Positions 1,847 to 48,700 of a stretch of 64,000 bases of DNA are shown here, piece by piece (the first letter of the stretch is position 1; every line of letters begins with the position of its first letter). The position numbers were made by a program, and so were the translations under genes. Origin of the DNA: a virus (lineage: Duplodnaviria > Caudoviricetes); IMG/VR virus record IMGVR_UViG_3300014203_000012, positions 96,001 through 160,000 of that record; one strand, written 5' to 3'. The notes below the pieces were generated by a model, which was not told the origin of the DNA, made no database searches, and saw only the letters and a program-made list of their open reading frames with translations.

Positions 1847-4135
1847 ATGAAAAAATATAATTGCCCATATTGCTCTAAACGTTTTTCTAGAGATGAGTTA
1901 AGTTCACACTTGGATACTGAGCATATTGAAATGATTCCAGACGGTATAACTGCTATTCAACTTGTATTTAATCTGGTAAACAAACGTGATCATGGAATAT
2001 GTGTTGTTTGTAAAAGAGCTACTGAATGGCAGGAAAATAATGGAAAATACGGTAGGTTATGTGGACGTACACAATGCGCAGACGCGTTAAGAGACGCATA
2101 TAAAAAGAATATGATTAAAGTACACGGTAAGACTACTCTATTAAATGACCCTGAAATACAAAAGCGTATGTTAGCAAATAGAGGCATCTCTGGTAAGTAT
2201 AAGTTTACTGATGGTGGATATCATGTATATACTGGCAGTTACGAACATCGTGCGCTTGAATTCATAGATAAAGTGCTAGGATTTAGCTCCAGTGAGATAA
2301 TGTGTCCAGGCCCGATATTTGAGTATGAATATAACGGGGATAAACATCAGTGGATTACCGATATGCTGATTATTCCTTTCAATCTAGTCATCGAAGTTAA
2401 AGATGGTGGTAATTCGCCAAATAATCGTACTATGACTAGTTACAGAGAAAAGCAAGTTGCTAAAGAGAAACTCATATCTGAAATTGGGACGTTTAATTAT
2501 TTGAGATTGACTGATAATGATTTCTCTCAACTGTTATTCAGTATTGCCGAGCTTAAAGCTCAAATGATTGATGATAGTGAAGATAATAAGAAAGTTATTA
2601 TCAATATCAACGAAGAGGTAGAAGCTTTACAAGAGGGTATAAATTATAAAATGATTAAAGATAAACTTATAGGATCTAAGCCTAAGAATTATAATATTAG
2701 GTTAGAGTCTTATACCAAAGCTAAAGAAGCAATATATAACTCTGCAGATGCATATGGGTTTAAAAAATATATGAGAGTATTTCCATACGATCAAAATAAT
2801 AACCAATTAACTTATTATGTATATGAAGAATCTAAAACTTGTTTATTATTTGCAGTGGATCTAAAAAGTATATCTAAAGAAGAAGATCGTAGAAATATTG
2901 TGTCGAAGATAAAAAAGTTTCTTAATGAGATAAATATTGAATGGCAAAAGATTAGCAAATTTAAAGATTTTGAAATAAAACTACATTTAGACACAGATAA
3001 ATATAAATATGGAGAATTTGCTATATATCATTATAATAAAATAAATGAAGGTATGGAATTTCTAGAAGAAATGTCTGTAGAAAGTAAATTAGATAAAGAT
3101 CATACACAAAAAGGAAATAAATCTTTATCTTCATTCAAAAAAGTTTCTATTAATTATACCGAGATTCAGAGATATAAATCGAATATGAAATCTCTATCTC
3201 ATATAAGAACCACTAGAGAATACAAAGGAACTATATTCTTAGATAAAGACAAACCAGTTTGTTATGTAAACGTAAATATTGATACTGGAATGGTGCAAGC
3301 TTTAGAAATATCTAAGGATTATCAAGGGTATGGATTATCATCCCAGTTGGTATCGTATGCAATGAATGCACTACATGCTACTTCTCTTACTGTAAATAAA
3401 AATAACGAAGTAGCAATAAAAGTATATAAACAAATGGGATTCAAGATTATTAAAAGTAGCGATACTATGATAACTATGTCTACTAAAAAGAATATACAAG
3501 AATTCATGGGATGCGCTGGTCCTGGTGGTATGCCAGGTGCTGGTCAAGGTATATACATGACGCAGTATGGACCTAAGAGTACCTTTGGAGATGATAACGT
3601 TGAAGGTTATGCAATCCATAATGATATTATTACTGATAGGATATTACTTGTTGACAAACGAGGGAATCTTACTGTAAAAGAATCTTCTTTTTTACAAGGA
3701 AGAAAGCTTAGAATATTTAAGTACGTAGGCGAGAATGCGCTTGGTTATGCAAATATCATAAGCTCAGTAAACAAAAGAGCATATAGAGAATATCTGTATG
3801 AAGCATTAACCGGAAAGAGATTATTATCTGACGATCAAGTTATTTGCGATGACTGCTTTACCGAAGTATCAGCCGCTAAAATATTTTCAGAATATAGTTC
3901 CGTTGCTCAAACTATCGTAGACCAATATAAGAAGATAATGGGAGAAGAAGTAATAAGACTTCCACTAATGAGTAAAGCTGCTATAAAAGAAGCGTCTAAG
4001 CTTCTAGGGAATAATAGGAGTATAAACGTATTTGAGAATATGAATGGATACTTTGCTGAGAACGCAGTAACTCGTGAAAGAACTGCATATTTTAAAAGGA
4101 TATGCGATATTCAGATTGAGGTGATAAAATGTTAG
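1847..4135 (+). CDS. Multidomain virion protein: Zn fingers, TnsA/T4 gp4-like PD-(D/E)xK nuclease, inserted unknown domain, GNAT acetyltransferase
   Basis: C2H2 motif CPYC...HLDTEH and CVVC. Nuclease-like YTGSYE...WITDML...LVIEVKD. GNAT motif A ALEISKDYQGYGLSSQL and motif B NEVAIKVYKQMGF (about 3200-3460). Confidence 0.7.
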   Translation: MKKYNCPYCSKRFSRDELSSHLDTEHIEMIPDGITAIQLVFNLVNKRDHGICVVCKRATEWQENNGKYGRLCGRTQCADALRDAYKKNMIKVHGKTTLLNDPEIQKRMLANRGISGKYKFTDGGYHVYTGSYEHRALEFIDKVLGFSSSEIMCPGPIFEYEYNGDKHQWITDMLIIPFNLVIEVKDGGNSPNNRTMTSYREKQVAKEKLISEIGTFNYLRLTDNDFSQLLFSIAELKAQMIDDSEDNKKVIININEEVEALQEGINYKMIKDKLIGSKPKNYNIRLESYTKAKEAIYNSADAYGFKKYMRVFPYDQNNNQLTYYVYEESKTCLLFAVDLKSISKEEDRRNIVSKIKKFLNEINIEWQKISKFKDFEIKLHLDTDKYKYGEFAIYHYNKINEGMEFLEEMSVESKLDKDHTQKGNKSLSSFKKVSINYTEIQRYKSNMKSLSHIRTTREYKGTIFLDKDKPVCYVNVNIDTGMVQALEISKDYQGYGLSSQLVSYAMNALHATSLTVNKNNEVAIKVYKQMGFKIIKSSDTMITMSTKKNIQEFMGCAGPGGMPGAGQGIYMTQYGPKSTFGDDNVEGYAIHNDIITDRILLVDKRGNLTVKESSFLQGRKLRIFKYVGENALGYANIISSVNKRAYREYLYEALTGKRLLSDDQVICDDCFTEVSAAKIFSEYSSVAQTIVDQYKKIMGEEVIRLPLMSKAAIKEASKLLGNNRSINVFENMNGYFAENAVTRERTAYFKRICDIQIEVIKC

Positions 4136-6363
4136 GATTAGACTACGAGGTTGTCAAACATGTTTGTTTAGATGATAGAGAGATAGCTGATTGGCGTGTG
4201 GCGCATAATAAGATCCTTTTATACAGTAAGTATGAAACAGAGAAAAAGTTAAAAGAAGACTGGGGATCATTTACCGATATGCAAATAGGGGATAGACGGG
4301 AAAGCGATTGGAAGTCTATAGATCTGTTTGGTCTTAGTAACACTGCTAGATACGAAGATATGCTATCAGAATTTCTTAAGAGCGATATTGAGGATGAATT
4401 GTATGATAATTTGTATGTTCCTGTAAAAGAATCTGCATATTCTCAAGCAGATGAATGGAACAAGAATAATATTAATAAAATTATTACCAAAGCAACGTCT
4501 TTAGAAGACTTAGAGGATCAATGGGATGCATATAATAGAATCCCAATTGACCGTAGATTCGAAGTAAATGATGCATCCAATGATCTATTTAAAATGGATA
4601 ATACCCAACATTATTCAATGCAAAAAAGTGAATTTCTTAAACAGGATATAGATGATGTGGAACCTACTTTACTCTATAGCCCAGTTAAAGAAGAAGCATT
4701 AAGATTATACGCATCAAAGATAGATACTATTGGGGCTGCGGAAACTTGTATGAAAATACAAGAATCTACTTTAGGGATAGCAACTAATATTATATTTGAA
4801 AGTGCAGTAAAGAATATTAGTGATAAAATAGATATGGATAATATGATGGCTCTATCTATTACCCCATTCTATTCTCCGTATGAAATGGAAAAGCTAGGTA
4901 TATCTGATATAGATACTGGTATATATAGCGGCGACCCTGATAATCTTCTTATTGGATCTATTACAACCAAACAATGGTTCCAAGAATATAAGAATAAGTT
5001 TAATGGGTTTAATGACGAAGACTATACTAGCCAATCTACATGGGCTGAAACTGTACGAAAGCTATACTCTAATTATAAAGATATAAAGGAATCTGGAGAT
5101 ACCTTTGCTATTAATAATAGAAAGCAATCTATTCTTGATCTTGGATGGAATCCAGAAATAGAGTTCAATGAAAGTAATAGAATATATGCAGATAACCGTA
5201 TAAATTCTATACTCAAAGAACAATATTCTCGATATAGAATTATTGATGTGGAGGAAAGCATATCTTTATTTAAAGAAGAAGCTAATGAAGATTATCTTGG
5301 AGCTCTTAGACAGGTTGCTGTTCGCCCAGTCTACATTGTATTCTTTAACTCTAAAACTATATTCAATAAATTAGTAAGAACTATGACTAAAAGTGTGTAC
5401 AGCCACGTTGCTATATCATTTACACCTTCTTTAAAAACTATGTATAGTTTCGATGCTAAGCGTGGTGGTTTCTCAGCCGAATATATGAAGGACTATATAA
5501 AATCTGGAGAAGTTAAAGCTATTCAGGTATTTTGCACTTTCATAGATGCAGATAAATATGAAATATTGCAATCTAGGATACATGAATACTCTAGAAATAA
5601 AAAGAAATTAGGGTATTCGTTTATCAATCTAATTACTATACCATTTAAAATAAATTATATTGATAGCTCTAAACAAGTTTGCTCTCAATTTGTAGATGGT
5701 ATGCTTAAATTAATAGACTTGGATATTACTCATCGTAATTCTAACATGATATCTCCAGGTCAACTTAATAAAAGTCTTAAAAAATACAAAGGTGATATGT
5801 ATAAAATATACACTGGTGCACCAGCAAAGTATAATCCAGATAGAATAATTGCGTTTATGAATAGAATAGCTAGCACAGTTATTAATGTAGAATCTGAAGT
5901 GCTAAGACCATTCCTTACCATATCTGCAATCAAAGAAGCTAAAGAATTCCCAGTACAGTTTACAGATGATGGTGATCTTCTTATATCTAAAGGTAAAGAC
6001 TTAGACTTCGAGGGAGAGTATTCTAGATGTCATATGGCATTAGTTCAATACGATAAGGCTAAAAATGCAGAAGCTATGAAGTATTGTTTATGTAAGTTAT
6101 GGTATATGAATATTGTTTTGGAAGAAAAGATCCATGATGATAAATCTGATAAGGATAAGATTAAAGAATACCATAAAGCTAGAGCTAAGATATTGAATGA
6201 TCTTAATGGATATATGACTAAAGTACAGAAGTTAGATAAAGACTTCGATATGCTTAAGGTATATAAAGAAAGTCCATTTGATAATAGCGAGATTAAAATA
6301 AGAAGATCTACACTAATTTACACTATCGATTTATTCAAAAGACTTATTGGTGCTACCAAATAA
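4129..6363 (+). CDS. Virion protein with an internal duplication and an inserted permuted papain-like (YaeF/YiiX-type NlpC/P60) hydrolase domain
   Basis: YSHVAISF (His at about 5404) precedes VCSQFV (Cys at about 5680), the permuted order. The N-terminal repeat ends SEFLKSDIED / SEFLKQDIDD. Confidence 0.65.
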   Translation: MLGLDYEVVKHVCLDDREIADWRVAHNKILLYSKYETEKKLKEDWGSFTDMQIGDRRESDWKSIDLFGLSNTARYEDMLSEFLKSDIEDELYDNLYVPVKESAYSQADEWNKNNINKIITKATSLEDLEDQWDAYNRIPIDRRFEVNDASNDLFKMDNTQHYSMQKSEFLKQDIDDVEPTLLYSPVKEEALRLYASKIDTIGAAETCMKIQESTLGIATNIIFESAVKNISDKIDMDNMMALSITPFYSPYEMEKLGISDIDTGIYSGDPDNLLIGSITTKQWFQEYKNKFNGFNDEDYTSQSTWAETVRKLYSNYKDIKESGDTFAINNRKQSILDLGWNPEIEFNESNRIYADNRINSILKEQYSRYRIIDVEESISLFKEEANEDYLGALRQVAVRPVYIVFFNSKTIFNKLVRTMTKSVYSHVAISFTPSLKTMYSFDAKRGGFSAEYMKDYIKSGEVKAIQVFCTFIDADKYEILQSRIHEYSRNKKKLGYSFINLITIPFKINYIDSSKQVCSQFVDGMLKLIDLDITHRNSNMISPGQLNKSLKKYKGDMYKIYTGAPAKYNPDRIIAFMNRIASTVINVESEVLRPFLTISAIKEAKEFPVQFTDDGDLLISKGKDLDFEGEYSRCHMALVQYDKAKNAEAMKYCLCKLWYMNIVLEEKIHDDKSDKDKIKEYHKARAKILNDLNGYMTKVQKLDKDFDMLKVYKESPFDNSEIKIRRSTLIYTIDLFKRLIGATK

Positions 6364-13806: not shown

Positions 13807-15204
13807 TTATGCTTTAGGAGTGGTAGCGGTTGCAGCAGCTTTAATAGCGTCTATTCCGCCTGGAAAATTAGGATTTGCCGCAATAACTTTAGTGTTAAGC
13901 TCTGAAGTTAATTTGCTCTTTGTATTAGCATCAGTTTTAGGATCTTCTATCTGCGCAATAGTCTTCAATATTCCAGCAGGATCGTCTAATTTAAGAGCGA
14001 TTCTATGGTCAGTTCCAGTTTGAGCAACCTGAGTATCTCCGTCCTTGCCCACATGCGCACCTACATGCAATTTAATGAGTTTCATATAATCTTTATAAAT
14101 TACATGAGATGATGTCATCTTAGCAGTAACAACTGCACTTGCCGCACCATTATAAGATCCAATCTTTTTAGTAAGAACATCAAGATCTTCGGTTGCGGTT
14201 GGAACTACAGCTGGTTCTGTAGAAGTTTGAACAGATGCCATATTGCTAGATGCTTTTGTACCGCCAGTTGTTGCTGTTGTATTGGCAGCTGCATTAGGAT
14301 CGGATTTAGTCCCAATAGTCATATTTCCTCCTCCAGCCGCATCTACTTCAGAGAAGTAAGAACCAATATAATTATCTAAAGAGTATGATGCATGTATAGG
14401 TTTTCCATCAGGGCCTAATATAGGTTTTGGTGTAGTTATTTGTTGTTGATTTACAGGTTTTCCATCAGGGCCTAGCATAGGTTTTGGTGTAGTTGTGGTA
14501 TCAGTTACATTCGGTTTAACTTCTGGTTTAACTGGTGGGTTCTGAGCATCGCTTTTAGATTTCTGGATAATCGCTTGAGCATCATTAAACGTTTTACTGA
14601 GTGTATTCTTATCTTTTTCAATTGTTACTTTAATCTTATCAAAATCATGGCAGAAATTATACAGATCGGTCATGTTCAGATTGGTAAGATTAGTAGACTT
14701 CTTATCTTCTCCACCTTGGAAATATGCTACCGCAAATCCAGCGAAATCTTTTGTTGCATCTTTGTAGTCAGGAATCAATTTGCTCTTAAATGTAATATCA
14801 GCTTCATCCACAGGAATAGTATCTTTTACTGTATTGAATGGTGGAACTGATACTGAAGTCATTCGATGTATACCTGCAGCATAATCGCGCATTTCAAGAT
14901 CAACATCTTCTGGTTTCTTATTAAGAATAATATCCTTATACTGCTCAAGATATCCTTTATCTGAGTTGACTATTTTCTGGGTAAATTCAACAAACTTAGC
15001 CCATACACGGTTTAAGAATGCAATGAATTTATCCCATAGCGCTCTGATTTTATCTCCCACATCTTCATGAACCGTCCAAAGCTTTTTAGGGGAGGCAGAC
15101 TCGGATACACCGACAATACTTTTTACAAAACCATTAATCTTTTCAGTTTCAATAGCTGATTCTACCATAAACTGAAAGTATCTAGCATCTTCAGTATATG
15201 TCAT
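13807..15204 (-). CDS. Internal head protein paralog 4
   Basis: VHE|DVGDKIRALWDKFIAFLNRVWAKF amphipathic helix and a YFQGGE core shared with its paralogs. Confidence 0.65.
   Translation of the reverse strand: MTYTEDARYFQFMVESAIETEKINGFVKSIVGVSESASPKKLWTVHEDVGDKIRALWDKFIAFLNRVWAKFVEFTQKIVNSDKGYLEQYKDIILNKKPEDVDLEMRDYAAGIHRMTSVSVPPFNTVKDTIPVDEADITFKSKLIPDYKDATKDFAGFAVAYFQGGEDKKSTNLTNLNMTDLYNFCHDFDKIKVTIEKDKNTLSKTFNDAQAIIQKSKSDAQNPPVKPEVKPNVTDTTTTPKPMLGPDGKPVNQQQITTPKPILGPDGKPIHASYSLDNYIGSYFSEVDAAGGGNMTIGTKSDPNAAANTTATTGGTKASSNMASVQTSTEPAVVPTATEDLDVLTKKIGSYNGAASAVVTAKMTSSHVIYKDYMKLIKLHVGAHVGKDGDTQVAQTGTDHRIALKLDDPAGILKTIAQIEDPKTDANTKSKLTSELNTKVIAANPNFPGGIDAIKAAATATTPKA
14399..14494 (-). repeat. 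57-nt-period direct repeat (TTPKP[MI]LGPDGKP twice)
   Basis: GGTTTTCCATCAGGGCCTA..ATAGGTTTTGGTGTAGTT at 14399 and 14456. Confidence 0.85.
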
Positions 15205-18653: not shown

Positions 18654-18665
18654 TATTAATATGTT
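18654..18665 (-). promoter_or_regulatory. Late-type promoter AACA-N6-TA
   Basis: Minus-strand AACATATTAATA upstream of the head-protein cluster. Confidence 0.6.
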
Positions 18666-22355: not shown

Positions 22356-22367
22356 TAATCTGATGTT
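22356..22367 (-). promoter_or_regulatory. Late-type promoter AACA-N6-TA
   Basis: Minus-strand AACATCAGATTA. Confidence 0.6.
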
Positions 22368-30154: not shown

Positions 30155-30166
30155 TAATATAGTGTT
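30155..30166 (-). promoter_or_regulatory. Late-type promoter AACA-N6-TA
   Basis: Minus-strand AACACTATATTA, abutting the hairpin at 30165-30192. Confidence 0.6.
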
Positions 30167-36200: not shown

Positions 36201-39200
36201 ATTTATACCCATAGCATTGTCTCTGATTTGCGCTAGTATTTCTACTTGCTCTTTCATAAACATTGCAAGTTTATCTGTATTAGCATCTAGTGAAGAATTA
36301 ATAGAGTCAAATTGATTACCCTCTTTAATAGTACCATCTTTGCTTTCATCTCTAGATTGTATTTCAGTTTGTAGAACTGAACGGTATTTATCTAGATTAT
36401 CTGCATTGATCCCTTTGATACCATGATCTTTTTCTAATTTTGCATATAGTTCATTTTCATTTCCAGTATAGTTTTCTTTTCTAGCCTTCATTTCTCTAAC
36501 TTTATTAGATTTAACATTTACTTCTTTAGAGAGTTTTGCTTTTTCAGCTGTACTTAAATCAGATTCCTGGATAAGACGTTGAGCTTTTTCCATATCTCCA
36601 GCGTGAGCAGCTTTAAGAATAGCTTTAGATTTTGAAACTCCTAGTTTATCAGTAACTGTAGAGCCTAGATCTTTTACATATTCAGCATGACGTTCATCTA
36701 AGAACCCTTTACCTTTTTTAAGTTCTCCCATGAGATTATGTGCTTTTTCTAAGTCATCTTTACTAGAATTAGATAGGTTTTCATCATATCCCTTTAACTT
36801 ATAATCTTTACCACGTTTAGCCATGAACTCAAGACGTTCATCTGCAGTCATGTAGTCAGCATTAGATTTTTCTATTTGATGCTGTCTTACTTTATCTCCA
36901 ACCCAGCCAATTGCTTTAGATGGAGCAGATATTACTTTAGCTCCTATATTAGCAGCTTTCTTAGCTGCCCACGTTACTGGTTTTAGTATTGCTTTTACTG
37001 GAGCCATGAGTTTTTTAACAAGTGGTATGCCTAAAGCAGATTTTATCGCCCAACCAAAAGCCTTTCCTATACCTTTAAACGTATCTTTTATAGCCAAACT
37101 TATTTGTTTACCAATAGGAGCTATAGAACGTTTGATTGGATCGAGCATATCTTTCTTCATAAAATCAAAGAATTTAGTTTTAAAAGTAGAAGCGAAACCT
37201 GCTAACGGATCTATCAATGTTTCTCTTAAAGCCCCAGATAAACCGCCTTTACGTACGCCTTTAGAATCTGCTTTTCCAAGCATGAAATCTTTAAATTCAT
37301 CTGTGGTTGATACTAATCCCAGTCCTGTACCAAGAGCAGCATTACCTAGTAGACCGAATGGTCCTAAAAACATAGTTCCAATTGCAGCAGCAGCTACATT
37401 AGGGAAAGCTTTTTGTATAAGTTTTTGGCTGTCTCCATTGATTAAGCCATCTTTCTCACCGAATAATGCATTTTGTATACCTTCATTATTCTTAGCAAAA
37501 CTAATAGCTGAACCCATCATAAGACCACCAAGTGGTCCAAGTGGAGTTAACATGCCAAGCACCGTACCAGTTATACCATAAGTCTTAGCATCAGGTAAAT
37601 ACTTCGACATGCTTTCTTGTAATTCATCAGAGAATAATCCGCCGCCTCTTTTGCCGGTGTCGTTCCCTTCTGCATCGTATACTTTTTCACCAAATAAGCC
37701 CTTTTGGAAAGTTTCACTATTGGATACAACAGATAATGCCGAACCTGCAATAGCTCCTAATAATGGACCACCTATTCCAGTAAGTAAACCTACTGTACCA
37801 CCAAGTAACCCACCAGCTATACCTTTAGGTAAATGCTTTTTAACTTCTGCATTTACTTTTGAAATTTTCATTCCAGCTTCTTTAGTATCAAATAATTGGT
37901 TAGCAAAATCGCCTATACCATTTTTAAAGTTATTTACACCTTTAGAAATAGCACCTTCTTGGCCAAAAGCAGGAGTACCATTAGCATTTTCAGCAATATC
38001 ATTTTTATCAAAGACTTTTCCAAGTCTTTGTTTGATATTTCTTTCATTTACTTCATCCTTACGTCTATCTGCTTTATCTTTATTAGGATTGAATGGATTC
38101 TCATCAGATGGGATAATTGCTTCTCCCTCTGATACTATACTTAATCCACTCTTAGTAATATTTCTAGCACCTTGGGCAAAGTGATTAACTTTGACTTGTC
38201 TTTCATCTAATTTAGGATTGCTTTTGAGATCGAATCCAAAGTTATTATAATAATCTTCTCCTCGTTCGGACGTTCCTCTTTCTGCGTCAGATAAGAATTT
38301 ATTCCCGATAGGCGTGAAATTTTCCAAAGGTGTATCCGTAGCTAAAGTTGGTAATATAGATGGAGAATGGTATTTCAGATTAGCTGTATATGATTCTACT
38401 AAATTTTTCTTTTTATACGATTCTAAGTAGGGAGCAATAGAAGGATTTGCTTTTGATGCGGATGCTACAAATTTAGTAAAACTCTCACTAATAGCTTTAA
38501 GACGTTCTACCGAATTGGTATCGAGTATAGCCTGTACGGTAGTGCTTATTTGCTCTTCTGGGATAGACATCTTCCCAAGCGTATCAGAAAAAATCTCTGT
38601 ATATCTTCCGTATAATGCACCCTTAGATGCGATTATATCATTCATTTTATTAGTAAGATCAGAGGTGTCTTTACCTACAGTAGCTCTTTGGTTTATCTGG
38701 ATTCGTATAGATTTTAAAGGATCACCTTTACCTAATCCTTTAACAGCTGTCATATATTCGGCCGATAACTCATCTACTTTTTTATATGCGACTTTAGCTT
38801 CTGGATCTGAAGTCGCCAACCCTAAAAGAGTAGCTAAAGAATCTAACGCTTGAGTAAAAGATTTTCGTTCAGTCGCATTACCAGTGAATGCTTTCTTATT
38901 AGCTTCAGCTTGCGATAATATAATATTTGGATCACTTATAGCTTTGTCTTTTGTAGTTCCAAACTGTTTCCAACTTTCATCTTGCTCTCTTTGTAAAGAT
39001 GATCGTTTTTGTTCTAATTTTTCTCTACCAGTCTTCATTGAAGAGGTTGCGTGTTCTAAAGCCATACCTTTACTAAAAATAGCATTAGCTCTTTTATTTT
39101 TAAGAAGATGCGAATACTTTGGATCACTTAGATCTAGTTTGGATAGGATTGTATCGCTAGGAAGTTCTAATATAGATTTGATAGTATTGAGATCTTCAAT

Positions 39201-42200
39201 TTTACCATTACGCTGAGCAAGTAACTCACTATCATCTTCATTATAGTTTTGAATAGCGAGATCAGTTTCCTGTATCTTACCTTTTCTTTCGGTATAAGAT
39301 TGTATTTTATTATTAAATACTTTTTTAGTTTTAGAATCTCTAAGTTTTATAGAATTTAGGTAGTCTAATCTTTCTTGTAGTTCAGATATTTTTTTAGGAT
39401 TTGTTTCTTCCTTTAATTTATTGGCTATAGTTTGACGCTCTTTAGTGTTAGCGTCTATACGTTTTACAGATTTATTATTTTTAACAGTATGCTTAAATGC
39501 TGTTACCTCGTCTATAGCATCAACACCAGTAGTTCTCTTAGCACTAGCTATTTTTTGATCTGTAGTTTGTTCACCTAGAATTTTATTATTATAGAATTGA
39601 TCTGCATCTTTATAGGACTTTTTCATGTCCTTTTTTACTTCTTCGTATGCTTGGTTATATGCATTTTTAACCGCATCTATAGTAGGAGTTAGTATACCTT
39701 CCTTACCAACAAAATAATCACTGATACCTTTGGTTATACCATCGATATCTACACCCATTCCCTTTAAAGCATTTTTACTAGCTTTCCACATGGATTCGCC
39801 ACCAAATTTATCTTTAAAAGGTTTTAGAAGAGTATTGTCCATCCAATCGTTTATTTTACCGAAAGTGCCTTGCAGTTCCCAACTCATACGATTAAAGAAA
39901 CCTTTAATCTTATTTCCATTTTTGTCTTTAACGTCGGATTCTTGACCATAGAAGAAGTTATAAATATTCTCATCTGCTTTACTTATTACTCCAGTGAGTA
40001 TATCCGCAGGCTTAGCAGTTAATTTATCTATACCGTTTCTAATAACGTCATATTTAGCTCCCAAAGAACCAGCTCTGATAAGTTGATTTAAGAAAGTAGT
40101 TTTATTATCTTTATCAGCAGTTTCTTCTAAATTTTTCTTAGAATCTTTTGCACTAGTAGCGATCATATCTGTTAGCCAGGTAGAATTATTTTCCATAGAT
40201 CTTTTATTATCTCTTACATTTCTATTACTAGCATTAACACGAATAGCCCCAGACGCCTCTGATGTATCGTCCATATAACGATCTACTCTCCCAATCATCT
40301 TACCTTGAGATTTAGCTTGATTATATCTAGAATTTTCAATACGCTCAAAAGAGTCATTCATTGATTTGGTTCTATCCTGTTCTATTTTAGCATTAGATTT
40401 TTCTTTAGGCCCTAGAGTTCTTTCAAATTGTTTTTTTAACTCTTCGTCTGATACGTTGGAGAAATCATCTTGGCGACCATTCGCTTTATTCTTTCCACTT
40501 TTTCCACCGCGAGAAGATCCGCAACCAAAACCATTAGTTTTTCTAATAGCAAATAGCTCACCTTGTATTCCTCTTAAATAGTCAAAGATATTCTTTTTAA
40601 ACGGATCTGTTACTTTAAGAATATTAGACTGATCTCCTAGATTGCCATATTTTTCTTTAATAATACCAGTTTTATCGTCAGTTTTAATATGAGAATCCGC
40701 ATTGTATCCATTAAATAGATTTCCGTATAGTGAGTTACCATCTTTTTCTATACCTTCCATTTGACGATTATGCATTTCTCTTTGAGATTGTATATTGTTA
40801 GCAGACTTCATTGCAGTTCCACGTTTAAGATTGGAAAACATGGTTTTAAAAAGTTTCATATTAGCTTTACTTTCTATACCATATTTAGTGTTATCAGATT
40901 CGTCCTTAGAATTTGGGTCGAAGTGCCCAAAATCATCATATATTTTTGTAAATATGGTTTCCATATCTTTATGCATAGCTTCTTTATCTTCTCTAGATTT
41001 AAAAGATAAAGCTTCCATCATTTTCTTCATCTCGTCAGACATATCAGACGTGGCCGATTGAACGTTAGTTTTTTTAATATTATTAAACTGCGTTTGTACT
41101 GCTTTAGCATTAGTCCATTTACCACTTTTAAGATCATAGAATCGTTCATTAGTTCCACCAATCAATGCTTCTATTCTTCTCAAGTGACCAGGTATAACTT
41201 CGATTAAGCTTTTATTAGCTATTCCATTCCATTGCATATTTCCTTGTTCATATTTAGAAGTGTCAATAGTACTTTTAACAGTATTCTTTAATCCAAATAT
41301 TTTACCAAGGAACTGCTCTAATGGATTTGCATTATCATCATTAGCATTTTTATTAAACTTAGCAGTCATAGTGGCGAAAGCGCCAGATAAAGTATCATCG
41401 AATTTCTTCAATGCTGTAGTTAATTTTGGTCCCATCGCACTAGCTATTAAGAACTGTGGTATGATAGCTAATGGATTATTCGCAAACATTTTAAGATTCT
41501 CTTCTGAAAGCATACCAAGCATACCACCAGATGCTTCATTAGCAGCATTTACAAAGTTACCACCAACAGCTTTACCATAAGCTTTAAGATCTGGAGTTCC
41601 ACTAGCGTTTACAACATCATCAAATCTATTTGCTTTCTTCTCTTTTTCTTCCTTCAATTCAACTTTATACTTTTCACGTTGCATTGTAAGCATTTCTTTA
41701 AGAATAGCATTCTGTTCTTGTAAAAGACCAGTCGTAGATTCGAAGTATCTCTTAGAGTTTTCAGCATGTGCACTTACTACTTCAGTATTGAATTTGTATA
41801 AAGCGTCAATACCATTAGACAATCCGCCAAAGCCAGATTGTATACTATTCATAAGTCTAATAGATTGAGTGTATTGCATATTAGCATTGCTCTTAGCAGT
41901 TCCTGCAATATATTCAGCAGAATTAGCAACAGCATTGGTTACAGCATATGCATTCTTTTCGGATGCAGAGTTGACTGCTTTGATAACCATTTGATCGCCA
42001 TCTGTTATTGTAGGAGTTGCATTGGTATCTGTAGTATTATCGAATTCTGACATATCTTCCGTGTCGCCAAAATCACCAAAAGAAGAATCTTCTCTTTTCT
42101 TGTTATACAGATTACCAGACTTGATATCTTCCATTGCATTACCAAATGCTAAATCGCTAAGTCTATATACAGTACTACCCTGGATTAGGTCTTTAGCACG

Positions 42201-42368
42201 TTTTACTGTGGTCTTATAATCTCTAACCGAGTGGAATACTTCTTTATAGAGTTCTTGATTAGACTCAGCAAAACTTGATAATGCTGGCGCTTTCTCTGAC
42301 ATATGCTGTATAGCAGCATACGAAACAGACTTGCCTAAGTTCTTTATATAATCAGCAACAGGATTCAT
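30204..42368 (-). CDS. Giant tape measure protein / tail-associated lysin with C39-like peptidase, phage tail lysozyme and NlpC/P60(CHAP)-like domains
   Basis: Start at ATG 42368 (AGGAGG RBS), about 4054 aa. Gly-rich hydrophobic helices and 11-aa W repeats. DSGCGP...HYVV...VQDP (about 33230-32760), AIAGIMGNIQQES...GICQW (about 32640-32280), NGCTAF...DHVVI (about 31660-31290). Confidence 0.8.
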   Translation of the reverse strand: MNPVADYIKNLGKSVSYAAIQHMSEKAPALSSFAESNQELYKEVFHSVRDYKTTVKRAKDLIQGSTVYRLSDLAFGNAMEDIKSGNLYNKKREDSSFGDFGDTEDMSEFDNTTDTNATPTITDGDQMVIKAVNSASEKNAYAVTNAVANSAEYIAGTAKSNANMQYTQSIRLMNSIQSGFGGLSNGIDALYKFNTEVVSAHAENSKRYFESTTGLLQEQNAILKEMLTMQREKYKVELKEEKEKKANRFDDVVNASGTPDLKAYGKAVGGNFVNAANEASGGMLGMLSEENLKMFANNPLAIIPQFLIASAMGPKLTTALKKFDDTLSGAFATMTAKFNKNANDDNANPLEQFLGKIFGLKNTVKSTIDTSKYEQGNMQWNGIANKSLIEVIPGHLRRIEALIGGTNERFYDLKSGKWTNAKAVQTQFNNIKKTNVQSATSDMSDEMKKMMEALSFKSREDKEAMHKDMETIFTKIYDDFGHFDPNSKDESDNTKYGIESKANMKLFKTMFSNLKRGTAMKSANNIQSQREMHNRQMEGIEKDGNSLYGNLFNGYNADSHIKTDDKTGIIKEKYGNLGDQSNILKVTDPFKKNIFDYLRGIQGELFAIRKTNGFGCGSSRGGKSGKNKANGRQDDFSNVSDEELKKQFERTLGPKEKSNAKIEQDRTKSMNDSFERIENSRYNQAKSQGKMIGRVDRYMDDTSEASGAIRVNASNRNVRDNKRSMENNSTWLTDMIATSAKDSKKNLEETADKDNKTTFLNQLIRAGSLGAKYDVIRNGIDKLTAKPADILTGVISKADENIYNFFYGQESDVKDKNGNKIKGFFNRMSWELQGTFGKINDWMDNTLLKPFKDKFGGESMWKASKNALKGMGVDIDGITKGISDYFVGKEGILTPTIDAVKNAYNQAYEEVKKDMKKSYKDADQFYNNKILGEQTTDQKIASAKRTTGVDAIDEVTAFKHTVKNNKSVKRIDANTKERQTIANKLKEETNPKKISELQERLDYLNSIKLRDSKTKKVFNNKIQSYTERKGKIQETDLAIQNYNEDDSELLAQRNGKIEDLNTIKSILELPSDTILSKLDLSDPKYSHLLKNKRANAIFSKGMALEHATSSMKTGREKLEQKRSSLQREQDESWKQFGTTKDKAISDPNIILSQAEANKKAFTGNATERKSFTQALDSLATLLGLATSDPEAKVAYKKVDELSAEYMTAVKGLGKGDPLKSIRIQINQRATVGKDTSDLTNKMNDIIASKGALYGRYTEIFSDTLGKMSIPEEQISTTVQAILDTNSVERLKAISESFTKFVASASKANPSIAPYLESYKKKNLVESYTANLKYHSPSILPTLATDTPLENFTPIGNKFLSDAERGTSERGEDYYNNFGFDLKSNPKLDERQVKVNHFAQGARNITKSGLSIVSEGEAIIPSDENPFNPNKDKADRRKDEVNERNIKQRLGKVFDKNDIAENANGTPAFGQEGAISKGVNNFKNGIGDFANQLFDTKEAGMKISKVNAEVKKHLPKGIAGGLLGGTVGLLTGIGGPLLGAIAGSALSVVSNSETFQKGLFGEKVYDAEGNDTGKRGGGLFSDELQESMSKYLPDAKTYGITGTVLGMLTPLGPLGGLMMGSAISFAKNNEGIQNALFGEKDGLINGDSQKLIQKAFPNVAAAAIGTMFLGPFGLLGNAALGTGLGLVSTTDEFKDFMLGKADSKGVRKGGLSGALRETLIDPLAGFASTFKTKFFDFMKKDMLDPIKRSIAPIGKQISLAIKDTFKGIGKAFGWAIKSALGIPLVKKLMAPVKAILKPVTWAAKKAANIGAKVISAPSKAIGWVGDKVRQHQIEKSNADYMTADERLEFMAKRGKDYKLKGYDENLSNSSKDDLEKAHNLMGELKKGKGFLDERHAEYVKDLGSTVTDKLGVSKSKAILKAAHAGDMEKAQRLIQESDLSTAEKAKLSKEVNVKSNKVREMKARKENYTGNENELYAKLEKDHGIKGINADNLDKYRSVLQTEIQSRDESKDGTIKEGNQFDSINSSLDANTDKLAMFMKEQVEILAQIRDNAMGINPKQQKKLDRANKIGDKASEIYTGQNNELVNTTNESISKAYDGQKISEANKNVLADNPNRFQDIKKLAYNGYKFKDLDKILSYDANTFKRFIELGQSGYEIKDYDKLAKMSDEGFGNILAFVQTGMKITNMDAIMNEDPEVIKAMVELFKGGFNNVSQDTLKKMAPKKSQYLGSAKDKAIDKMYDSTNEDDEKAADNVSKVNGNNYDPRTNYQKYKDDVGKVISPIGEEFSRGKSIAKTGISMAANDIAGGIRSTKNAIGAGISSIGASIADKYKTLRHPSILPNGFADGATSITKGGVAVLSKGEQVVPANENKFAATSTPVPKDSKSPTQVNTEYGIESYTKSTDGSMVMANSKDNKAIQEKISDRDNTQKGILTNLKIMAGVASGKLKVGAEAAKSIAKGGLAGALSGLLDLVKLPMTMLKSFGSLLGLPLQLLGLGGVGSWMGGKLGGAASWVGNKLGAAAGWAGNKLGGAAGWAGNKLGGFASKIKDKIIGTKLGGAMVGKLGALSTRFGNSKIGGFLGKGLTKGKSLLGKAGGKISGLFGGGDSSSAVDGDGNAVDEPTDLLAAMNTHRTTMVSYLQQIIDLLKGGAGVGDSSGNPIADAAQEIRDRSDGKATKAKGAAAAGGKPGALSRAGSFISKHKGKLALAAGAAAIGTSLFSSSKAEAATPDNSDAPNTTTTNAPSFSNTASGLIGGGLRIVRDIANNPEIVEKAQAFIAKAKDALKSLVEKVGKFIPSSKAYTAVQEFCGKLLEKMAAPKNIAKIVEKLGAKLSMAAAYATVGAATAGIGDVVLAVGEAISWFWHGWSGSDELYQIKSGSTAGMKFVAGFVDAVVNMIPILGYVIQTDDVLDMALGIIGPPCGFTRADVEKLRNGGSDSTNESQDNKDPSENKGPSGVGGFFQKSWNSAKDIASNTWDSVKNFAANAWDSTKKMANNAWDSVKNGAQNISDKVGNAYNSAKNTVATWMDKNSATGKTGPKFGRGAGTLADGFHSQLDPANAMNFNTSQDSTPQTMEDSGCGPVSATNMASALGVNIDPKSAAKYALSKGYKEKDGGTEPGYFGDILGKYGIGTEQVQSPTDIKSNLSQGNPVLLMGKDNKGVNNDNPYGQYNHYVVGTGMDGKGNITVQDPESTTPDKMYKASSVLGKSSMAIAAGKGKFGRGNKVLKSAMGKLGTGKWGRGTEDNAQKIWNFLKDKKMSSEAIAGIMGNIQQESSFDPTADNGTHRGICQWDKNDRYARMSALGDPNLLDTQLNFMWQEMNERGVVDKLNSSKSIKEAAEIWDTDFEVSGGSEMGKRVSYGENIFNTIGQGKPFSGSATNSKTNNKDTKKKNTGFFGQLSELAETMSNAFNLNSSDATTPPHTGKGKWGRGIELDNSAAPGLAPTTTTEITKPSVNTAGVSLSGESAPGATPINNSNKVAAAAQTASSDGMLGGVLSAAKSMTGKMQQALGPLAGAITSQAGSFFGADKLKMIFGDDNPFSSIFGSKDKKDKKQSDGYTGEKFVSNSTNAGIQKASTWAEGLVESDQPQGYGPNGCTAFAKDYIEHSGNEFANSMPLWTPTLMEQAKASGLWKDASKGGAEGDIGLINTDSDPSDPDHVVIADGKGGYFGNSSSTLKVKHGPMADTWGDKNIFGYVATGAGDGSVVTGNKTNGVDTAAEAGPGSASGKSGLNKFGTGKTGPRKFGTGTMLDQIKDSIKAVPEDFIQDYNKITDDDSMDVAKAKAQKIKEMWDAAQAQLKPNSTSPAINLPSPEGIAQSDLTAKTLSGKQPISEVNPSYANALVKEATKNTDNPLNGISTNFIDGFNNKTDTQESSSQDNSIIKTKNSRGQELLSQLKQARKNFALKHLNGGVGTGSPIWGRGTDQTNIESITDSIDKNIIDPNIIKANSSNPVSVAQAQQDKSQISQACAPDYSPKLDMIISLLASIAGALTGQTPSTQAQTNTTTASNQKSSLSPASILSKLSSMGNGSNNGFGDIMATKDTQSIISAMRAIAIS
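33300..33490 (-). repeat. 11-aa tape-measure repeats (WDSVKN...)
   Basis: WNSAKDIASNT/WDSVKNFAANA/WDSTKKMANNA/WDSVKNGAQNI. Confidence 0.75.
34740..34880 (-). repeat. 33-nt tandem repeats (GNKLGGAAGWA)
   Basis: TTATTACCAGCCCAGCCAGCAGCT recurs with 33-nt period. Confidence 0.8.
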
Positions 42369-42395
42369 ATCCCATTCCTCCTTTCTTTTAACATT

Positions 42396-42407
42396 TATAT
42401 CTATGTT
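42396..42407 (-). promoter_or_regulatory. Late-type promoter AACA-N6-TA
   Basis: Minus-strand AACATAGATATA, 28 nt before the tape measure start. Confidence 0.6.
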
Positions 42408-42430
42408 TTCACCTACACTTCTTATACGAG

Positions 42431-42470
42431 ACAAACCATAGAGACTACCACATTGTGGTAGTCTCTTATA
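42431..42470. repeat. Direct repeat copy 1, containing a terminator hairpin, flanking the RCC1 gene
   Basis: ACAAACCATAGAGACTACCACATTGTGGTAGTCTCTTATA. Confidence 0.85.
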
Positions 42471-42471
42471 T

Positions 42472-43602
42472 CTATTTTTCACCATATGCCGATTTGGTAT
42501 CAGTTAAGAACATTGTAAATTTTGTTCTTGGAATGATTTCTAATATATTATCCCATAATAAAGATATATTAGATAGATTAGGTATTAGTGTAGGAGTGGT
42601 ACATGTCGTAATATCACCTAAACCTAATTGAGGGTTATTACCATATGCTTTTACAGTACCGTCATCTAGTAATACCATTGAATAATAATACCCACTTGCT
42701 ATTTGTTTTACATTAGTTAGATTAGGTATTAACGTAGGACTAGTACGATTAACTGCATCACCTAACCCTAATTGTCCGCCAACATTATATCCAAAGGTAT
42801 ATACTGTACCATCGGTTATTAATATCGATGTGTGGTGGGTTCCACCAGATATTTGTTTTGCGTTAGATATACCAGGTATTAAAGTAGGAGTAGATATTGG
42901 ATTTGTGGTATTGCCTAAACCTAATTCACCGAGACTATTATAACCAAATGCTTTTATTGTACCATCATTTAATAATGCAAACGAATTATAACTACCTCCT
43001 GCTATTTGTTTTACGTTACTTAGACTAGGTATTAATTTAGGCATTAAACTATTACCAACATATCCTAATTGACCGGAATCATTCAGCCCAAATGATTTTA
43101 CTGTACCATCATTTAGTAATGCTAAAGAATGATATATACCACCTGCTATTTGTTTTACATTAGTTAAATTAGGTATTATTGTAGGAGTTTTATATGGTGT
43201 TGTAGTATTTCCTAACCCTAATTCACCTTGAGCATTATATCCCCACCCTTTTACAGTTCCATCATTTAATACTGCCAGCGAATGATTATTACATCCTACT
43301 ATTTGTTTTACATTCGTCAATCCAGGTATTAACGTAGGAGTAGATATCGGGGTTGTGGTATTGCCTAAACCTAATTGACCATCCGTATTATTACCAAATG
43401 AATATAATGTACCGTCATTTAGTAAAACTAAAGAATAATCATACCCACATGATGTTTGTTTTACGTTAGTTAAATTAGGTATTAACGTAGGGGTGTCGAG
43501 ATTTGTGATATTACCTAAACCTAATTGACCGGTAGTGTTATAACCAAATGATTTTACTGTACCATCGTTTAATAAAACTAAAGAATGTAGATTTACACTC
43601 AT
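42472..43602 (-). CDS. RCC1/BLIP-II-like 7-bladed beta-propeller protein
   Basis: Seven repeats of HSL.LLNDGTV..FG.N..GQLGLG...TPTLIP.L.NVKQI. ATG 43602 after GAGGTG; late promoter AACA-N6-TA at 43655-43666. Confidence 0.9.
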   Translation of the reverse strand: MSVNLHSLVLLNDGTVKSFGYNTTGQLGLGNITNLDTPTLIPNLTNVKQTSCGYDYSLVLLNDGTLYSFGNNTDGQLGLGNTTTPISTPTLIPGLTNVKQIVGCNNHSLAVLNDGTVKGWGYNAQGELGLGNTTTPYKTPTIIPNLTNVKQIAGGIYHSLALLNDGTVKSFGLNDSGQLGYVGNSLMPKLIPSLSNVKQIAGGSYNSFALLNDGTIKAFGYNSLGELGLGNTTNPISTPTLIPGISNAKQISGGTHHTSILITDGTVYTFGYNVGGQLGLGDAVNRTSPTLIPNLTNVKQIASGYYYSMVLLDDGTVKAYGNNPQLGLGDITTCTTPTLIPNLSNISLLWDNILEIIPRTKFTMFLTDTKSAYGEK

Positions 43603-43692
43603 TATACTCACCTCTTATTTCTTTTACACAATATTCATATATTTGATTTAGTATTATAAAGGTGTTGTATATATTCAGCTCCCATATATTAA

Positions 43693-45512: not shown

Positions 45513-45647
45513 TTATTTTCCTCCTATTTTTTTAAGTCTTACCACAGGATATATGAGTTTAATTGGTTTACACCTTTCATGTAATATTTGATCTATTTGT
45601 TCTCTACTGCATTTAGATATTGTATCTAGAAAATCTGATTTATTCAT
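45513..45647 (-). CDS. Small 44-aa hypothetical protein (not in the ORF track)
   Basis: GGAGG RBS, MNKSDFLDTISKCSREQIDQILHERCKPIKLIYPVVRLKKIGGK*, and GACT-N6-TA at 45671-45682. Confidence 0.6.
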   Translation of the reverse strand: MNKSDFLDTISKCSREQIDQILHERCKPIKLIYPVVRLKKIGGK

Positions 45648-45731
45648 ACCATATACCTCCAATAATTAGTTACTTATAAGTCTATACTCTTTCAATTATT
45701 TATATTTACACCCATCTAAATGGATACAGCA

Positions 45732-45743
45732 AACACTAGAGTA
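45732..45743 (+). promoter_or_regulatory. Late-type promoter AACA-N6-TA
   Basis: AACACTAGAGTA, 28 nt before the RNAP gene. Confidence 0.6.
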
Positions 45744-45771
45744 AATTTGATACAGAAGGTGGTGGATAACA

Positions 45772-48700
45772 ATGTCTGTATACTTAGACGATATAAAACC
45801 TCTAAGGCTAACAAAGACAGAGTTTTTTCTTCCTATTAACGAAGAGGATAAGAAAAAGAACAGTGCAATATTCTTACTAACTCCTAATCTAGAAAGTTCT
45901 ATAAATATGATGAAGCACCCATTGGCGCTCAACCGAAGGTTGTTCGAATCATATTATATAGAGAAGGACATCGCTTTTATTCTTAACGAGTCAAGGCAAT
46001 TAGTAGTTGGTGAGGATATAATACCAGTGGAATACAACCCACTAAATCCTATGAATTCTATAAAGATGCATCATAAAAAATATCATAAGTCAATTGTAAA
46101 ACCAGTTGAGATGATAAAGGAAGGACTAGTCCCTAAACTTACATTTTATCACGGGACATCACTAAAATTAAATTCGTTACATCCAACCTCTCCAATGCTT
46201 GGTAATAAATTAGAAGATGCTAAATGGGCTACTTATCTATGGAGAGATAAAACAAAAGCTAGATATTTCGCTATTCAAAAAACTTGTAGAAATATATTAA
46301 GAAAAGAAGACAAAGATAAAAACTATATGAAACCTGCATATGATATAGCATCTGGTAAATCATTTTTATTAGAAAAGGATTGGGATTGTGTAAAAGATAT
46401 GGTGGTTGGAAATGTAGCATATGTATACACAACAGAAGTCCCAGCAAATAAGATAGGGTTTGGGCATTGTAGTTCTATTGCAGAGTTTACAACTGATATT
46501 GAATTGCCATTATTAAAAACTGAACGTATATATATAACAAGTGCTATATTTGATGAGGCTTTCATTAAAGTAGGAGAATCAGAATTAAAGGATAGAACTG
46601 CTAATGTACTAAATACAGCTTCTCGTGGTATATTAAAATATATAATGCACGATCAAGATGAAATATTTAAGAAAGAAATGATTATTAAAAAGAAATTAAA
46701 AAATAAAGAAATATCACCTGGAGATAATCTAAATATAATCTTAGATAATCTAGAAGAGCAGGCTATACTTTCAGAAGCTGTAGAGCAGATAGTAGTAGAA
46801 GATTATGATAGACCACGAGGAGAATATTCTATTAATGAAGACTTTGTTCATACTAACTATGAGCATGAAGAATATAAGATTTTCTTTGGCGACGCAGTTC
46901 AATCTATATTAGAAGACGAAAACCCTAAATCTAAATTGTACTCTTCCGCTATGCGTAAACTTCTCTATTCTGAGAGGATTAAGAACCAAAAAGAGTGTGT
47001 TCTTATCCATGATAAAGTAAAAACAGATCTGACATTTATCAAGTATACCTATATCAACTATGCTCTTTATAAACAAAAGAATCTATTTATAGATTGGTCT
47101 TACTATACTCAAACCTTCTTTAAGAATAATATTTATAAGATGGATAGAGCGGTTGACCTATACTTTGAGTTTATCACTAGATTCTTGGATGATGCTAGAT
47201 TAGATGATAACGGGTATGTAAAGAAAACAGTATTTGTTCCAGTACAGGATTGGATAAAAACTGATATTGTTGCGTGGGATTATACCAAAGACATCAACCC
47301 TATTTCAGTTATCTATAGACTACTCAAACGTAAATCTACTCTATTAAAAGAAAAATGGGGTGGATATAATTTTGTATTCCTATCAAACAACGCATACTTC
47401 AAACTAGACTTCAATGATTTTGATGATAAAGGACTTCCTTTATTCACCATGCTAGTAAGCAAGCTTAGTACTGGTCAAACACAAGATGCTGAGTTTGAAA
47501 AGAACGATTCCCCAAAAGCTATTCTCCATAAGATAATAGATAATATTGAAGATGGTGGAATAGAAATAAGCAATCTTACTGGTGGTACCTCTAAACTTTC
47601 TCCTGAAGATATCAAAAAGAAACTCGATATGGGAGGATCAGATAATATCGCCGATGATAAGCGCCCTAAAGAAGAAGTAGAAGATGAGAAGAAAGCTAAA
47701 TTAGTTACTCATATAAAGGATACCGCAGAAAAGTCTACAGATGAAAAGAATGCTATGGAAAATCTAAATTCTGATATAGATAGCGAATGGGTTAAAAATC
47801 TCATAACTGACCTACAATCTGAAGATGGACCAAATATGAACATAGCTAGAAAAGCTAGAATAAGTAGTCTTAGATCTGACTTTGCTAATAAAAAATTAAA
47901 TAATACAAAGATTGAAGATATCATCTATCAAAATAAAAGGATGACTGAATTGGAAACTGATGTGATTCCGATTAAGAATATAAATGAAGAATGGAATGAT
48001 GTTAAGTTTACTACGTTTAGTAAGAACTACAATCTAGATTCAGATATATATGCTATACTGGCCGATATGGGAACTAAATCAGATCCTATTATGGTTATAG
48101 ATGTGGATCGTGTTGACACTTCTACTTCAGAAGATTATGTAGAAACTTGGTCTGTAAAATTTGAAGATGCAAACGGTAAAAGATTTACCACAAAACTAGA
48201 TATTCCTAAGTTTGTAAATAATAGATTTATGAAGCTTAGAGGCAATCTAAAAGTAGTTAGTGGTCAATTGGTACTACTCCCTATTATCAAGACAGATGAG
48301 GATACTGCTCAAATAGTATCGTCATATAATAAAATCTTTGTAAGACGGGTAAATCCTAGTGGTGGTTCTAAAACTACACGAAGCGTAAGTAAGTTAATTA
48401 AAGCTCTATCTAAATATGAAGGAACTAAAATCAAAGTATTTGAAGGGGATAATAGTTTCGTATGTGAAAAATATGATCTACCTATTGAATACAGAGATTT
48501 AGCCGGAATGTATAGCAAGATAGTATTATCAGATGGAAGTTATTATTGCTTTAATATGGATGATATAAAAACACTACCATTGGAATATCCAAAAGAAGAT
48601 AGTAGTAGAATTCCGTTCTATGTAAATGCAAAGGGTAAAGTGGAAACATGCGCAGATGATCCAGCTAATATAATCCTGGATAGATTGTGTTTTGATGATA

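Follow-up and report, generated by a model that had tools for sequence, protein, structure and literature searches.

Exchangeable enzyme modules at candidate prohead protease sites in three proteins of a relative of the uracil-DNA jumbo phages

Why do three unrelated phage proteins carry enzyme-like domains, and are these domains permanent parts of their carriers or cargo that is cut free in the maturing head? The question is raised by a 64,000-nucleotide stretch of viral DNA (the window; bases 96001 to 160000 of the 183.9-kb virus record IMGVR_UViG_3300014203_000012; G+C content, ∼32%), whose proteins match, at 22 to 39% identity, those of the uracil-DNA jumbo phages AR9/PBS1, Staphylococcus phages S6 and MarsHill, Listeria phage LPJP1, Yersinia phage phiR1-37, and Fusobacterium JD-Fnp phages. 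The proteins concerned are A (1847-4135; 762 amino acids [aa]), B (4129-6363; 744 aa), and C (45772-50922; 1716 aa), the last being a subunit of a virion RNA polymerase (RNAP). Comparison with homologues indicates that all three are modular proteins and probable precursors, in which invariant parts are combined with exchangeable enzyme modules at fixed hot spots. The invariant parts are the zinc finger/nuclease-like and C-terminal modules of A, the N-terminal repeats and C-terminal domain of B, and the leader and RNAP beta core of C. At the joints, [L/I/V/M]-x-Glu stands before Ser, Ala, or Gly, which conforms to the cutting rule of prohead proteases of the T4 gp21 type; the same genome encodes one such protease. 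Cutting by this S77 protease would be the most economical explanation of the joints, given the conservation of the motif and the precedents in other phages.

An earlier note on this DNA had described the domains as bounded by clusters of hydrophobic-x-Glu motifs. Such motifs occur about 3 times per 100 aa across the proteins of the window, and on shuffling, their numbers in A, B, and C lay near chance (z scores of 3.07, 0.39, and 0.99, respectively). Clusters above chance were therefore not found, and the motif count in a single sequence was rejected as evidence; the caveat in the same note that the motif is low in information was justified by this test. The weight must therefore come from comparison of homologues, which is given here for each protein in turn, beginning with B.

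4180..4701 (+): tandem N-terminal repeats of B, residues 18-105 and 108-191; the repeat hidden Markov model (HMM) matches twice, and the first repeat ends at VKE101|S
5314..5883 (+): permuted papain-like (YiiX/NlpC-P60-type) domain of B, residues 396-585; His426 at 5404-5406 and Cys518 at 5680-5682
5884..5937 (+): insertion hot spot of B; NVE588|S, a 15-residue spacer, and IKE603|A
5938..6363 (+): conserved C-terminal helical domain of B, residues 604-744; the part of the family most widely kept

A homologue search with B returned 76 proteins of 437 to 1274 residues, which were mapped onto B and share four conserved parts, namely, one to three N-terminal repeats (two in B), a core, the papain-like domain, and the C-terminal domain (604-744). 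Inserts of 90 to 500 residues lie between positions 588 and 603 in 23 homologues and comprise GNAT, an AAA_33 P-loop kinase, and a ligase-type zinc ribbon; other homologues carry a transglutaminase-like DUF553, an HD, or a NUDIX domain at other points. Directly before the insert, 16 to 18 residues past a fixed anchor, 21 of these 23 proteins have [I/V]-x-Glu. The insert ends in a second hydrophobic-x-Glu, and a few residues on, L/I/Y-x-Glu precedes K-x-F-P-V. Among 41 homologues free of inserts, the E101 column holds Glu in 37/39 (hydrophobic residue at P3 in 33/37 and Ser at P1′ in 28/37, counting from the putative cut), the E588 column holds Glu in 37/39, and the E603 column holds Glu in 40/41, with a hydrophobic P3 and a small P1′; in a wider set, E603 is kept in 68/74 and its P3 is always hydrophobic. 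Linkers 86-98 and 174-184 have low predicted local distance difference test (pLDDT) values in the AlphaFold model of B.

The permuted papain that had been proposed for B holds at the level of the fold. The AlphaFold model (41 homologues; pLDDT, 78) is matched in Foldseek by the cysteine peptidase 3kw0 (E = 9e-4; probability, 1.0), Escherichia coli YiiX (2if6; probability, 1.0), and the type VI effector TseH (6v98), with template modeling (TM) scores by target of 0.49 to 0.53 for 3kw0 and 2if6. The candidate catalytic residues His426 and Cys518 occur in that order and are each at least 90% conserved in the 41 homologues. B has no Pfam match, and no papain-type Pfam match was obtained even at E values up to 10, so that the domain is assigned, from its model, as fold-level kin of the permuted papain NlpC/P60 enzymes and no closer. 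It occurs as a stand-alone protein of 290 aa in JD-Fnp1, whereas the B homologues encoded by three 215- to 260-kb contigs and seven database homologues lack it, a distribution that points to mobility of this domain too. An Atlas look-up of the C-terminal domain of B gave no lead, and no fold or family assignment was obtained for it.

Protein A, encoded directly before B, is built of four parts.

1847..2635 (+): N-terminal module of A, zinc finger plus nuclease-like, residues 1-263; ends ININEE-VEALQE263|G; phrog_15137, E = 7e-45
2636..3091 (+): module of unknown function of A, residues 264-415; replaced by other modules in homologues
3092..3502 (+): GNAT module of A, residues 416-552; Pfam match at residues 448-536; ends NIQE552|F
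3503..4135 (+): conserved C-terminal module of A, residues 553-762; preceded by hydrophobic-x-E|x-M-G-L-A-G

The GNAT domain that the sequence had suggested was confirmed at residues 448-536, where two Pfam families score above their gathering cutoffs (PF13673, E = 4.5e-9, 36.8 bits versus 23.6; PF00583, E = 2.3e-6, 28.3 bits versus 20.7); a Pfam search with residues 264-415 returned no family match. Residues 1 to 240 are of the AR9 g233 type, “Zn finger plus endonuclease” (phrog_15137), and this module forms a stand-alone protein of ∼238 aa in AR9 (g233), LPJP1, and phiR1-37 (g237, labeled “phage structural protein” in its record). In 12 homologues of A, the N-terminal module is kept or has MazF/PemK in its place (two members), the C-terminal module (570-760) is kept, and the middle region varies between GNAT, GNAT with M23 and NUDIX, and a P-loop ATPase. 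The N-terminal module ends in ININEE followed by [L/I/M]-x-Glu and then Gly, Ser, Thr, or Gln in 8/8 homologues that have it, and hydrophobic-x-Glu stands 1 or 2 residues before the MGLAG start of the C-terminal module in 9/9 homologues that have that module. The candidate sites at the border between the module of unknown function and GNAT (INE401, LEE408, or SVE415) are unconserved in the closest homologue, and residues 264-552 may therefore be one unit. The GNAT module (taken as residues 409-552) contains no strict internal cut site. The A-type C-terminal module also occurs at the N terminus of some B-family proteins and of the metagenomic protein P0109. In JD-Fnp1, an A-like gene is followed by the stand-alone papain-like gene, the same gene order as A-B. 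The Fusobacterium phage genes concerned are 83 and 82 (L003 7959-10000), where the annotation “DNA gyrase subunit A” actually refers to a protein with an A-type nuclease-like module.

The third carrier, C, has its enzyme-like module near the N terminus.

45772..46011 (+): N-terminal leader of C, residues 1 to about 75-80; candidate capsid-targeting propeptide; conserved
46123..46776 (+): ADP-ribosyltransferase (ART)-like module of C, residues 118-335; His127, Tyr217/219, and Glu238; between IKE117|G and LSE335|A
46777..46914 (+): spacers before the polymerase core of C; candidate sites INE356|D and ILE381|D
46915..50922 (+): virion RNAP beta core of C, residues 382-1716; phrog_3148, E = 8e-125; Pfam RNA_pol_Rpb2_6

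Its best matches are AR9 g189 (“virion RNAP subunit”) and a MarsHill “viral RNA polymerase beta subunit,” and its identification as an RNAP subunit stands, C being orthologous to g189, which is the beta subunit of the AR9 virion RNAP. The earlier note had called A, B, and C core virion proteins; by orthology (to g189), this holds for C only.

An exhaustive search with residues 1-600 gave 446 hits. The leader is found at the N terminus of ∼120 of 129 C homologues, whatever comes after it, and its HMM also matches exon 1 of AR9 g189 (E = 4e-4). Following this same leader, the polymerase core of 82 long homologues begins 75 to 1865 residues in; minimal forms lack an insert, and the inserts examined are NUDIX, GNAT, P-loop kinase, and DUF6582. 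C itself has candidate sites LNE73|S and IKE117|G. In a linker that is otherwise unalignable, the column after the leader holds Glu in 109/122 homologues, with Leu, Ile, Val, Met, or Phe at P3 in 102/109 and Ala, Ser, Gly, or Met at P1′ in 90/109. The E381 column, before the core, holds Glu in 129/133, and P3 is one of I/L/F/M/V/Y in 127/129. The columns of E335 (82/118) and E356 (59/135) also contain Glu, and E335 is invariant in a five-sequence alignment of the module.

The ART-like domain reported in C is only moderately supported: nearly all fold matches are ARTs, but the scores are weak. The model of residues 100-345 (pLDDT, 71.5; predicted TM score [pTM], 0.70) has Arr as its best Foldseek match (E = 0.016; probability, 0.94) and VIA Z scores of only 4 to 5. 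Almost all among the 50 matches listed have the ART fold, with Arr, TreX, MbcT, diphtheria, cholera, and pertussis toxins, and PARPs among the folds matched; a sequence search of the module against PDB chains gave no match. Tyr217, Tyr219, and Glu238 are invariant in five sequences and His127 is present in four of the five, and these residues may form an H-Y-E catalytic set. The module is probably ART-like, a model-based assignment that is short of established. Separately, the model aligns weakly (Z, 4.2; 119 residues) with PDB 9k3a_B, a chain of the cyanophage A4 pre-ejectosome and thus an internal virion protein of solved structure.

Copies of the ART-like module also occur away from the polymerase. 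A word-indexed search for stand-alone copies returned none, but the exhaustive search found P0111 (224 aa), and the module is part of the non-polymerase multidomain proteins P0109 and P0183. P0109 (1041 aa) combines the start of an A-type C-terminal module with a P-loop kinase, the ART-like module, and a NUDIX box, and the presence of the ART-like module in this A-type protein argues that modules move between carriers. P0109 begins at E-AMGLAAMNP, the motif after the putative cut site that precedes the A-type C-terminal module; the gene call may be truncated, or the gene may be a separate one that starts exactly at the joint.

If the domains are cargo, then orthologs should have them absent or swapped exactly between the Glu sites, as the earlier note had reasoned, and this was found in all three families (76 homologues of B, 12 of A, and ∼130 of C). 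Fold-based definition of the domains, from AlphaFold models of B and of the region of C, gave papain-like and ART-like folds. The module types at the hot spots of the three families comprise GNAT, NUDIX, P-loop kinase, HD, M23, MazF, transglutaminase-like, papain-like, and ART-like domains, and most hot spot flanks keep Glu with a hydrophobic P3 and a small P1′. Each protein has two or more domains of types found in biological conflict systems (nuclease-like and GNAT in A, papain-like plus scaffold in B, and ART-like plus RNAP in C), and homologues have up to four or five enzyme domains. HMMs of the leader and of the repeats, core, papain-like domain, and C-terminal domain of B detected no further carriers in this genome.

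A protease of the expected type lies outside the window (G000:C1:64581-65426). It was missed by a genome-level Pfam search for S77, located by tblastx with AR9 g114 (“prohead core scaffold protein and protease”), of which it is a homologue, and then confirmed on the open reading frame (ORF), which matches Peptidase_S77 (PF03420) at 40.3 bits versus a cutoff of 27 and phrog_207, “head maturation protease” (E = 1.8e-23). The type member of PF03420 is T4 gp21, “prohead core protein serine protease,” which cuts after (L/I)-x-Glu. The C-terminal region of the protease contains LSE|S and VSE|S, at which the enzyme could cleave itself, comparable to the C-terminal propeptide in SPN3US gp245.

Candidate substrates of a different kind are the products of four paralogous genes, probable internal head proteins from their paralogy and the alignment of their sites.

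13807-15204 (−): paralog with site VHE47|D at 15064-15072
15201-16346 (−): paralog with site VRE69|S at 16140-16148
16410-17453 (−): paralog with site YNE65|G at 17259-17267
17477-18592 (−): paralog with site VQE72|G at 18377-18385

The four motifs that had been listed for these proteins (VQE|G, YNE|G, VRE|S, and VHE|D) are all present and share a single alignment column, immediately ahead of a conserved helix. That helix corresponds to the region of the phiKZ_IP profile (PF12699) matched by three of the four paralogs (E = 5e-5, 2.5e-3, and 0.77; 23.1, 17.5, and 9.3 bits), all below the cutoff of 27, and an Atlas look-up also points to internal head proteins (lead score, 0.94). On this evidence the paralogs are probably internal head proteins that are distant relatives of phiKZ_IP and not members of the family. 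A tblastn search of one paralog against phage records gave no match, and an HMM of all four detected nothing in the stretches of AR9, LPJP1, JD-Fnp1, and MarsHill examined. The T4 Gp23 Pfam model found no capsid gene; a distant homologue of AR9 g117 is located at G000:76801-78609 and has N-terminal candidate sites VTE39|S, LKE68|S, and VME103|S, which were not used for calibration of the motif.

All three carriers are encoded in a late or virion gene context, with synteny to the tail/baseplate and virion genes of AR9 (window genes 18714-42485 correspond to the AR9 tail/baseplate block g204-g216) and late-promoter-like motifs upstream. The late promoter consensus of AR9 is AACA-(6N)-TA/G, and g189 is a late gene (PMC5312081). 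In a pattern search, AACA-N6-TA was depleted across the window (44 found versus 74 ± 8 expected), and several of the copies lie 25 to 65 nucleotides (nt) upstream of the start codons of structural genes, as AR9-type late promoters would.

1443-1454 (+): AACA-N6-TA late-promoter-like motif, upstream of operon 1477-6363
45732-45743 (+): AACA-N6-TA late-promoter-like motif, 29 nt upstream of the gene for C
18654-18665 (−): AACA-N6-TA late-promoter-like motif, upstream of the four-paralog operon
22356-22367, 30155-30166, and 43655-43666 (−): further AACA-N6-TA late-promoter-like motifs

These motifs are suggestive of late expression of operon 1477-6363, C, the paralog operon, and several tail genes. 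Three other genes of the window are recorded here in their own right. An ORF of 4093 residues (30204-42485, −) occupies the position of the AR9 tape measure gene g204 (1925 aa) and is twice its length. Adjoining it, 42472-43611 (−) encodes a 379-residue protein of RCC1-like repeats (phrog_7220, E = 1e-72), which also match “tail protein” PHROGs. The C-terminal half of a 440-residue protein encoded at 56897-58219 (+) matches thymidylate synthase PHROGs (phrog_85, E = 3e-17), which is of note in a relative of uracil-DNA phages.

The closest known concept is that of the polyvalent proteins of phages and conjugative elements, which have 2 to 15 conflict-type domains per polypeptide (Iyer, Burroughs, Anand, de Souza, and Aravind 2017, PMC5512222). 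As in A, B, and C, unrelated effector-type domains (ART, GNAT, kinases, peptidases, and NUDIX neighbors) are joined there in one phage polypeptide beside virion genes, have been gained repeatedly from solo versions, and are predicted to undergo packaging and processing and to be delivered along with the DNA. In contrast, their processing is attributed mainly to embedded peptidase domains, whereas the joints described here carry the motif of a separate prohead protease. The text of PMC5512222 contains neither “phiKZ” nor “jumbo,” and what appears to be new here, judged by sequence comparison, is the protease-type joints, the fixed hot spots on three conserved scaffolds, and the use of a multisubunit virion RNAP as carrier.

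T4 provides the precedent for cutting and delivery. Alt and the internal proteins (IPI-III) are processed and ejected; after late expression, an N-terminal targeting peptide is removed and an ART is delivered with the DNA (PMC7411985). The protease is of the Peptidase_S77 family, and the cut rule, hydrophobic-x-Glu followed by a small residue, is the same. However, the T4 targeting sequences have 10 to 20 residues and each protein has one function, whereas the leader of C has ∼75 to 80 residues, modules are chained, and there are several putative sites per protein. Leader candidates are the conserved leader in C and the N-terminal repeats in B; none was identified for A.

The heads of giant phages (phiKZ gp175, 201phi2-1, and SPN3US gp245) likewise contain paralogous internal head proteins with long propeptides ending in x-x-Glu and a protease related to T4 gp21. 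Their removed regions have been treated as propeptides with no assigned enzyme domain, and their P3 is Ser, Ala, or Gly, or Ala, unlike the Leu, Ile, or Val found here, which is closer to T4. In 201phi2-1, the virion RNAP beta subunit has a 275-residue propeptide cut at TFE-275 (PMC5694885). A counterpart within the same phage group is the C-beta subunit of the AR9/PBS1/BpSp virion RNAP (AR9 g078), in which an N-terminal HD enzyme domain on a virion RNAP subunit is removed by proteolysis; the fusion has been called unique and of unknown role (PMC7598289). It differs from C in the subunit, in the domain (HD), and in that the domain is reported not to be found in virions.

With these precedents, we propose that the invariant parts would bring each precursor into the prohead, where the S77 protease would cut at the joints during head maturation. 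The folded modules would be too large to exit the shell and would stay in the head, to enter the next host with the DNA and polymerase and there acetylate, ADP-ribosylate, or hydrolyze host targets. We give this model as a whole (packaged, cut, and delivered) a probability of roughly 0.55; we infer that A and B are packaged, that any of the joints is cleaved, that the modules are kept in the head, and that they are injected. Delivery is favored by the maintained catalytic motifs, by the recurrence of enzyme types among the three proposed capsid carriers, and by the cell wall hydrolase modules: M23 and NlpC/P60-type modules are cell wall hydrolase types and would fit proteins that leave the virion at infection.

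Several points weigh against this model. The conservation counts come from homologues that are related to each other and are not independent observations, and the motif is near chance in this sequence, as noted above. E603 and E381 are at the first residues of conserved domains and could be structural rather than cleavage sites. The papain-like domain is kept in most of the B family, unlike a typical insert, its N-terminal border lacks a conserved site, and no homologue of B has proteomic evidence. Fold scores for the ART-like assignment are weak, and one of the five homologues lacks the His. The AR9 record does not label g233, to which the N-terminal module of A is orthologous, as a virion protein, and the GenBank entry for g078 describes a “proteolysed protein” and states that “only RNAP domain is found in virions”; for both, virion status in AR9 rests on GenBank record notes only. 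The latter record weakens the case for injection as free enzymes. In SPN3US, all mapped cleavages remove N-terminal propeptides (PMC10052503), and the virion RNAP beta subunit is unprocessed (PMC5694885).

The g078 note and the propeptide-only pattern of SPN3US favor loss of the excised modules, that is, modules situated in long propeptides that the prohead protease removes and the mature head does not retain, with an enzymatic role in the producing cell or the prohead. The removed 275-residue propeptide of 201phi2-1 fits such a fate, as do the 110- to 130-residue propeptides of SPN3US, which are removed and cut into smaller pieces. Disposable spacers would nevertheless hardly be expected to keep catalytic signatures intact across many lineages (GNAT above the Pfam cutoffs; His426/Cys518), or to be of the same enzyme types on three scaffolds that are proposed to be bound for the virion. 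In addition, a folded domain of 15 to 25 kDa would not be expected to exit the shell unless it were cut further, and the GNAT module lacks a strict internal site. Discard of the modules is therefore, in our judgment, an unlikely outcome, though one to be taken seriously. Less likely again is that nothing is cut and that A, B, and C work as intact fusions, packaged or not, with hydrophobic-x-Glu as a feature of linkers or domain caps. The low information content of the motif and the position of E603 and E381 against the starts of conserved domains would agree with this, as would the virion RNAP of phage N4, which is packaged unprocessed (PMC5512222), and that of SPN3US. It does not readily account for the same P3/P1/P1′ pattern at the joints of three unrelated scaffolds and in the phiKZ_IP-like paralogs, matching the rule of the encoded protease family, or for sites that lie in otherwise unalignable linkers of low pLDDT.

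Processing might instead be due to the papain-like domain of B, acting on A and B in the way proposed for the peptidases that are recurrently embedded in polyvalent proteins (PMC5512222). Conservation of His426 and Cys518 and the succession of an A-like and a papain-like gene in JD-Fnp1 are compatible with such a role. Many B homologues without the papain-like domain nevertheless keep the junction motifs, and the polymerase family, in which no papain domain occurs, shows this motif as well. The structural matches YiiX, TseH, and 3kw0 are, moreover, presumably of amidase/cell wall hydrolase types and not Glu-specific endopeptidases, and we consider self-processing very improbable.

Packaging, cutting by the S77 protease, and delivery of the modules therefore remain our preferred account of this locus. 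A broader proposal, which we put forward tentatively and would not yet hold to be probable, is that AR9/PBS1-like jumbo phages share a pool of cassettes (GNAT, NUDIX, P-loop kinase, HD, ART-like, MazF, and cell wall hydrolases) that slot into hot spots bounded by protease sites on three or more unrelated carriers destined for the capsid, the virion RNAP among them, and that these would constitute a lineage-specific first-strike kit, released by the head protease and injected together with the DNA.

Each conserved site predicts a precise cleavage position that can be tested. Should the joints prove to be cleaved and the modules to accompany the DNA, giant phages would possess a general plug-in route by which enzymes reach the cell ahead of all phage gene expression, which would account for the unexplained extra domains on virion RNAP subunits, such as the HD domain of AR9 (PMC7598289). 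The combination of carrier, hot spot, and Glu motif would then provide a rule for finding injected anti-defense and takeover enzymes in uncultured phages, and the joints would be natural fusion sites for packaging cargo into phage heads.

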